9,739 nucleotides of DNA. Source: Escherichia coli. GTDB taxonomy: Bacteria > Pseudomonadota > Gammaproteobacteria > Enterobacterales > Enterobacteriaceae. The position numbers and the translations under genes were made by a program. Below, one piece after another: positions 4,601 to 5,513 of this stretch. The number at the start of each line of letters is the position of its first letter. The stretch's first letter is position 1. The notes beneath the pieces are model-generated. The model was not told the origin of the DNA. It ran no database searches and worked only from the letters and a program-made list of their open reading frames with translations. The DNA lies in assembly GCF_003334815.1 (NCBI RefSeq), contig NZ_QOWO01000062.1; one strand, 5' to 3'.

Positions 4601-5499
4601 TTCACAACGGTAAGCGGCTGATGGTGGAAGATTTTTACCGTGTCAGCGGCAATACGCTCTGCAGCAAAAATACCGCGCATCCGCGCCCAGGTGTTACTGT
4701 CGACCGAAGCAACCTGCTGCTTCTGCGCGGCGGTTAACATCTGCCAGAGCGGATCTTGTTGCCAGCGTTTAACAATGCTCTCTTCGCGATAGTGGGCAAC
4801 CAGCAGCCAGGCAGGATTGACCGCCAGCAGTTGCTCCAGGCCGATGGACGGCATGGACGCACCCGCCATCGCAGCGGGAACGTTCAGCCCCAGAGAGGCC
4901 AGCACGCTGCCGGTCCAGGTCTCCTGAGTATGCAGGTTGAATTGCTGTTCGCGTGATGTGCCAAAGGCCACGCGTGTCCCTTTGGGAAGCTGGCTGGCCC
5001 ACTGCGCCATCCTCTCTTTATGTTGTTCCAGGCGTGCCTGCATCTCTCGCTTTTTACCCACCATTTCGCCGATGATAGCCGCAGATTGCAAATTTTCAGC
5101 GTAGGTTTCGTTGCGGGACTTAAGCAGCAGTACCGGCGCGATTTGCTGCAAGGCGATGTAAACCCCCGCATGGCGACTGCTGTCGGCAATGATCAGGTCT
5201 GGTTTCAGAGCGGCAATGGCTTCCAGGCTCGGCTGCGCGCGCGTTCCGACGGACTGCCACGGTTTCAGGTGCGCACGCACTTCGGGCAGGATGCGTTTTG
5301 CATCGTTATCGTCGGCAATACCGATCGGGCTGACGTCCACGGCGGCCAGCGCATCGGCGAACGAGAGTTCCAGCACCACAATCCGTTGTGGCGTTTTTTC
5401 GAGTGTAAACGTGCCGTGTTCGTCCTGAACCGTGGCGGCAAAGGCGTGGCTGATCACCAGCAGCAGGCCTGCAAAAACAAAACGGATAAATGCCAACAT
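4597..5499 (-). CDS. fecB: Periplasmic ferric-dicitrate binding protein FecB (300 aa from the ATG at 5497..5499; the ORF track extends to a GTG at 5503..5505)
   Basis: N-terminal signal peptide (…LLLVISHAFA/ATVQ) followed by a periplasmic binding-protein sequence, positioned between fecA and fecC. Choice of ATG over the upstream GTG is by recollection of the protein N-terminus MLAFIR. Confidence 0.93.
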   Translation of the reverse strand: MLAFIRFVFAGLLLVISHAFAATVQDEHGTFTLEKTPQRIVVLELSFADALAAVDVSPIGIADDNDAKRILPEVRAHLKPWQSVGTRAQPSLEAIAALKPDLIIADSSRHAGVYIALQQIAPVLLLKSRNETYAENLQSAAIIGEMVGKKREMQARLEQHKERMAQWASQLPKGTRVAFGTSREQQFNLHTQETWTGSVLASLGLNVPAAMAGASMPSIGLEQLLAVNPAWLLVAHYREESIVKRWQQDPLWQMLTAAQKQQVASVDSNTWARMRGIFAAERIAADTVKIFHHQPLTVVK

Positions 5500-5513
5500 A
5501 ATCACATTCCAGC

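Follow-up and report, generated by a model that had tools for sequence, protein, structure and literature searches.

The Favored Translation Start of fecB in an Escherichia coli fec Locus and the Status of an Upstream In-Frame GTG

Introduction

FecB of Escherichia coli K-12 (b4290), the product of the same gene as that considered here, is the 300-aa periplasmic ferric-dicitrate binding protein of the fecIR-fecABCDE system. Expression of the fec operon requires iron limitation together with citrate. Between fecA and fecB lies a hairpin that is reported to lower the expression of fecBCDE relative to that of fecA (Enz, Braun and Crosa 1995, as relayed in a passage of PMC9249621).

The locus analyzed here is contained in a 9,739-nt stretch of E. 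coli DNA, hereafter the window, which is 99.95% identical to E. coli E2865 over 9.67 kb. Annotated features of E2865 are IS1F, ykiE, fecI, fecR, fecA, fecB, fecC, fecD, fecE, a hypothetical gene, and an IS3-family transposase. This annotation, together with ORFs of matching size in the window, places fecB between fecA and fecC, immediately after the former. The stop codon of fecB overlaps the start of fecC by 4 nt (4597..4600), and the annotated fecD likewise overlaps the fecC stop by 4 nt; gene overlaps of this size are an arrangement typical of translational coupling. A 1-nt indel distinguishes the window from E2865 near window position 1548. Insertion-sequence remnants flank the fec locus (window 1..983 and about 9563..9739), with a frameshifted IS3-family transposase at one end and an IS1F-family transposase and the small gene ykiE at the other. 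The 261-nt region that spans the fecB start is widespread, being present in 2762 of 5426 complete E. coli genomes and on ~1290 plasmids, mostly of Klebsiella.

Results

Read directly from the window sequence, the minus strand around the fecB start is GCTGGAATGTGATTATGTTGGCATTT. The segment from 5560 to 5470 (-) runs GGTCGTTGAAGTTC TGA TGTGTTAAC GCCCGG CTTG CCGGGC TTTT AGCTGGAAT and then enters the start codons, GTG ATT ATG TTG GCA TTT ATC CGT... (table 1). GTG and ATG are six bases apart in the same frame with no stop between them. In the ORF listing of the window, which applies a first-start-after-stop rule, fecB is 4597..5505 and encodes 302 aa from GTG; the translation is (M)IMLAFIRFVFAGLLLVISHAFAATVQDEHG..., beginning V/M-I-M-L-A-F-I-R-F-V-F-A. 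GTG appears as the start of this ORF only because such programs open a frame at the first start following a stop. A preliminary description of this DNA had placed GTG and ATG at these coordinates with the N-termini MIMLAF… and MLAFIR…, and the minus-strand sequence and its translation bear out both. Its list of candidates was correct for these two codons but overlooked a third in-frame start-type codon, TTG (5496..5494), and the TAA upstream.

Table 1. Coordinates of features at the fecB start, given as positions in the window
Feature	Position	Strand	Basis
fecA stop codon TGA; 44-nt spacer to the fecB ATG	5544..5546	-	
TAA closing the fecB frame upstream, codon -13 relative to ATG	5536..5538	-	
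fecA-fecB intercistronic hairpin GCCCGG-CTTG-CCGGGC (5534..5519) plus TTTT	5514..5534	-	Terminator-like site, fold
GGAA, degenerate Shine-Dalgarno element	5507..5510	-	GGA:anti-SD about -3.3 kcal/mol
GTG, in-frame alternative two codons upstream of ATG, 302-aa product, mechanical ORF start	5503..5505	-	
ATT, codon -1, between GTG and ATG	5500..5502	-	
ATG, favored fecB initiation codon, 300-aa product	5497..5499	-	RefSeq annotation, orthologue conservation, SD spacing, NCBIfam profile
TTG (codon 2), third in-frame start-type codon	5494..5496	-	Weak start codon, aligned spacing 8
Putative Sec-type signal peptide, residues 1-21, MLAFIRFVFAGLLLVISHAFA, predicted cleavage before ATVQDE	5437..5499	-	Translation, inspection
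fecB CDS as supported, 300 codons plus stop	4597..5499	-	

Across species, the ATG is conserved and the GTG is not. We took fecB loci from one genome per species and examined the fecA-fecB junction in the 34 that match from residue 1. All 34 are from other species, and the comparison is made on DNA, independent of the choices of gene callers. Codon 0 is ATG in 33 of these junctions. The position of GTG, codon -2, is a stop (TAA, TAG, or TGA) in 11; Photorhabdus has TAA or TAG here throughout, and Klebsiella michiganensis has TGA. Another 17 junctions carry a non-start sense codon at this position, and just six have GTG or TTG. Codon 2 is mostly a non-start codon (TTC, TTT, CTT, or other). Judged from the DNA, codon 0 is the sole candidate start available across all clades but one. 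The single orthologue without ATG at codon 0 is that of Xenorhabdus koppenhoeferi, which has ATT. There, the junction (L015:1480-1510) reads GTG AAT ATT TTG with a GGAG that overlaps GTG, and the start is likely TTG (aligned spacing ~6) or ATT.

Codons upstream of ATG also vary among close relatives. Within a divergence of ≤2%, codon -1 is ATT (Ile) in the window and K-12, AAT (Asn) in E. coli 1303, or ACT (Thr) on Klebsiella plasmids; Pseudenterobacter timonensis has ACG (Thr). Such variability would be expected of a spacer rather than of coding sequence. In the closest clade, consisting of E. coli, Klebsiella plasmids, and P. timonensis, codon -2 is always GTG or TTG, a pattern that rests on a single substitution; two of the nine possible single-base changes of GTG keep a start-type codon. 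We considered the GTG-to-TTG change in P. timonensis as a sign of selection for a start at codon -2 and rejected this interpretation because a single substitution is involved. Of 2762 E. coli records, 2709 share an identical 68-nt start region, and the other 53 carry differences at 1-3 bases within it. GTG is unchanged in two variants read among those 53, in which the changes are in codon -1 (ATT to AAT) and in the hairpin, although this is a low-powered test.

Conservation of the protein likewise begins at the ATG-encoded methionine. All 29 diverse FecB sequences compared retain M1, and 87 of the 120 best database homologues are 300 aa in length and start M-x-x-x-x-R, with none at 302 aa. One database homologue (P0001), 396 aa long and starting MLAF, matches FecB with 100% identity across the whole query; presumably, read-through or a frameshift produced a fusion where fecB and fecC overlap on a metagenome contig.

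The location of the Shine-Dalgarno (SD) element relative to the candidate codons differs substantially. In Photorhabdus, Pectobacterium, and Klebsiella, among others, CUGGAG occupies -13..-8 relative to ATG, and the window has CUGGAA (5512..5507) in the same register, with GGAA at -11..-8. In all orthologues examined, the GGAG-type SD pairing ends 5-8 nt before ATG. Pairing of GGA to the anti-SD (GGA:CCU) is available in one register only, and the aligned spacing is 5 for ATG, -1 for GTG, and 8 for TTG; GTG lies just 2 nt after GGA. The optimal aligned spacing in E. coli is said to have been put at 5 nt by Chen et al. in 1994. In E. coli, moreover, AUG far exceeds GUG as an initiator in both strength and frequency. 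A rough, approximate initiation score based on Salis-2009 parameters is about -4.5 kcal/mol for ATG and about -1.0 at best for GTG, which reaches this value only via a GGGC site within the hairpin stem. ATG at 5499 has the properties of a canonical SD-led site, with a spacing of ~5 (in a range of roughly 3-9) and conservation of both start and register, albeit with a weak SD. GTG at 5505 does not, having a spacing of -1 to the only accessible SD-like element and poor conservation. Because the SD is weak (3 bp), arguments from spacing weigh less here than they would with a strong SD.

Two very short ORFs are also present near the fecB start. An out-of-frame minimal start-stop ORF, ATG-TGA at 5502..5507 (-), sits between the SD and the fecB ATG. 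It abuts GGA with 0 nt between and shares a G with the GTG candidate. This mini-ORF is not present in orthologues, which have GGAGTGA, GGAGTTGA, and similar, and it is probably a chance arrangement. Farther upstream, a three-codon mini-ORF, ATG-TGT-TAA at 5536..5544 (-), is in the fecB frame and overlaps the fecA stop (TGATG); its TAA is the codon that closes the fecB frame upstream.

The spacer between fecA and fecB also contains a hairpin (5534..5519), which is an intercistronic attenuator or mRNA-end hairpin, with 8 nt separating it from GGAA and neither start codon within it. A GC-rich hairpin is found in all 31 fecA-fecB spacers that were folded (the window and 30 orthologues), and its sequence and length vary, which suggests that the hairpin is conserved in structure rather than in sequence.

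The presence of an in-frame GTG upstream of ATG is no more than is expected by chance. Over the 12 open sense codons that extend from TAA to ATG, the computed probability of at least one ATG, GTG, or TTG is ~0.45, and for the two codons nearest ATG, the computed probability of a start-type codon is ~0.10. Extension of ORFs beyond annotated starts is seen elsewhere in the window. The mechanical ORF of fecD, 2649..4115 (-), encodes 488 aa from a TTG versus 318 aa annotated, a difference of 170 codons, with the annotated start at ~3605. The first-start-after-stop rule therefore over-extends fecD too, and the GTG start in the ORF track is a product of that mechanical rule and is not evidence for initiation at GTG. 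The fecB case illustrates gene over-extension by this rule.

Curated annotation and the family profile both place the start at ATG. In all records examined, the RefSeq/PGAP CDS for fecB spans 903 nt (300 aa) and corresponds to window 5499..4597. These records included those of E. coli E2865, 1303, 1332KP, and O25b:H4, that of a K-12 derivative, and Klebsiella plasmid records, one of them annotated without PGAP; database annotations of the fecB start are nevertheless mutually dependent and are not independent proof of where the ribosome starts. The window protein is a member of the FecB family of Fe(3+) dicitrate ABC transporter substrate-binding proteins (NF008501 / PRK11411; Pfam PF01497), and all FecB homologues have a precomputed assignment to PF01497. 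Against the NCBIfam profile NF008501 (FecB), it scores 501.2 bits (cut-off of 320), with residues 3-299 of the 302-aa form aligned to positions 1-300 of 303. Position 1 of the profile aligns to residue 3, the methionine encoded by ATG. The 302-aa GTG form is found in GenBank in an early K-12 entry, AAA97186.1, and in a few other strain records.

These results bear on how open the choice of start is. The preliminary description titled the start ambiguous, favored ATG as the match to the FecB N-terminus, and suggested a comparison with curated FecB entries. That comparison gives a uniform answer, as the RefSeq records and NF008501 all begin at ATG, and the preference for ATG is upheld by RefSeq, profile position 1, and the cross-species DNA comparison alike. 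The two in-frame starts are real, but the choice between them is largely resolvable by sequence comparison and is less open than that title implied. The ambiguity is historical and is already settled by current curation. A full-text literature search that combined fecB with start codon found no published experimental verification of the fecB start, and fecB is not mentioned in the supplements of three studies of E. coli start sites (TetRP 2016, TRAINSPOTTER 2026, and Giess 2017).

The choice of start has little effect on the signal peptide, which had been described as intact from either codon. Inspection of the FecB N-terminus identifies a positively charged n-region (Arg6) and a hydrophobic core, with an A-F-A motif preceding ATVQ, and these elements of MLAFIRFVFAGLLLVISHAFA are kept with or without the extra Met-Ile. 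As the predicted cleavage removes residues 1-21, mature periplasmic FecB is predicted to be identical from either start. For the same reason, ordinary N-terminal proteomics would have no power to discriminate between the starts because the signal peptide would be removed and the mature N-terminus shared. Solved structures were likewise considered as evidence on the start codon and are uninformative; crystallized homologues identified in a PDB search begin at a position aligned to T23 and represent mature domains only. Residue 9 (5473..5475, -) is variable: the window has GTT (Val), K-12 and the majority of Klebsiella plasmids have CTT (Leu), and a single plasmid has ATT (Ile), with every variant lying within the hydrophobic core.

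Discussion

We infer, with a probability of roughly 0.88, that translation of fecB starts mainly at the ATG at 5499..5497 (-). A 30S subunit would bind the weak GGA(A) at 5510..5507, just downstream of the fecA-fecB hairpin, and binding there would put ATG in the P site at optimal aligned spacing. The predicted product is a 300-aa precursor, MLAFIRF..., and the GTG six bases upstream would be a chance in-frame start-type codon that happens to fall inside the SD-to-start spacer. The predicted Sec signal peptide would then be cleaved off to yield the same mature periplasmic FecB whichever start is used.

Other readings of the region differ in which codons ribosomes are supposed to use. Dual initiation, with ATG as the main start and a minor fraction of ribosomes at GTG, is unlikely. 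A weak SD may leave P-site placement loose, GTG is in frame 6 nt upstream of ATG with no intervening stop, and start-type codons at -2 recur in six of the 34 orthologues. Against this, the aligned spacing of GTG, only 2 nt from GGA, is strongly disfavored by established spacing rules, GUG initiates more weakly, most lineages have lost the site or have a stop in its place, and codon -1 tolerates changes as radical as Ile to Asn. Were dual initiation to occur, the additional precursor would begin fMet-Ile-Met-Leu... and have a signal peptide longer by two residues with the same mature protein; minor use of GTG would have no known consequence. Still less likely is the suggestion that the overlapping ATG-TGA (5507..5502) and GTG (5505..5503), if used by ribosomes, could tune the already low output of FecB relative to FecA or yield a second signal-peptide isoform with different export kinetics.

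Readings that displace ATG altogether are very improbable. GTG (5505..5503) as the real principal start of a 302-aa protein would match the longest ORF and the form deposited in GenBank (AAA97186.1), yet the codon is not conserved, is replaced by a stop in 11 orthologues, has no usable SD spacing, and is bypassed by the family profile and all current annotation, which begin at ATG. Just as improbable is a start at TTG (5496..5494, codon 2) to give a 299-aa precursor. The codon is in frame at an acceptable aligned spacing of 8, and the equivalent TTG of X. koppenhoeferi, a species with ATT at codon 0, is at a good distance from a GGAG; UUG is, however, the weakest of the common initiators, it is directly beside a well-placed AUG, and most orthologues have a non-start codon at this position. 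Initiation mainly at ATG is thus the reading that we favor over all of these.

The implications are a matter of annotation hygiene only: the 300-aa ATG form is the one to use, and older 302-aa records should be treated as over-extensions. The choice of start is predicted to leave the mature protein, its function, and its regulation unchanged.

The same history is visible in the best-described system. In E. coli K-12, the start of fecB was re-annotated from an early longest-ORF call (AAA97186.1; 302 aa, GTG) to the current ATG. The fecA-fecB spacer and start region of the window are identical to those of K-12, and the two differ within the signal peptide, where the window has Val9 and K-12 has Leu9, while their start codons are identical.
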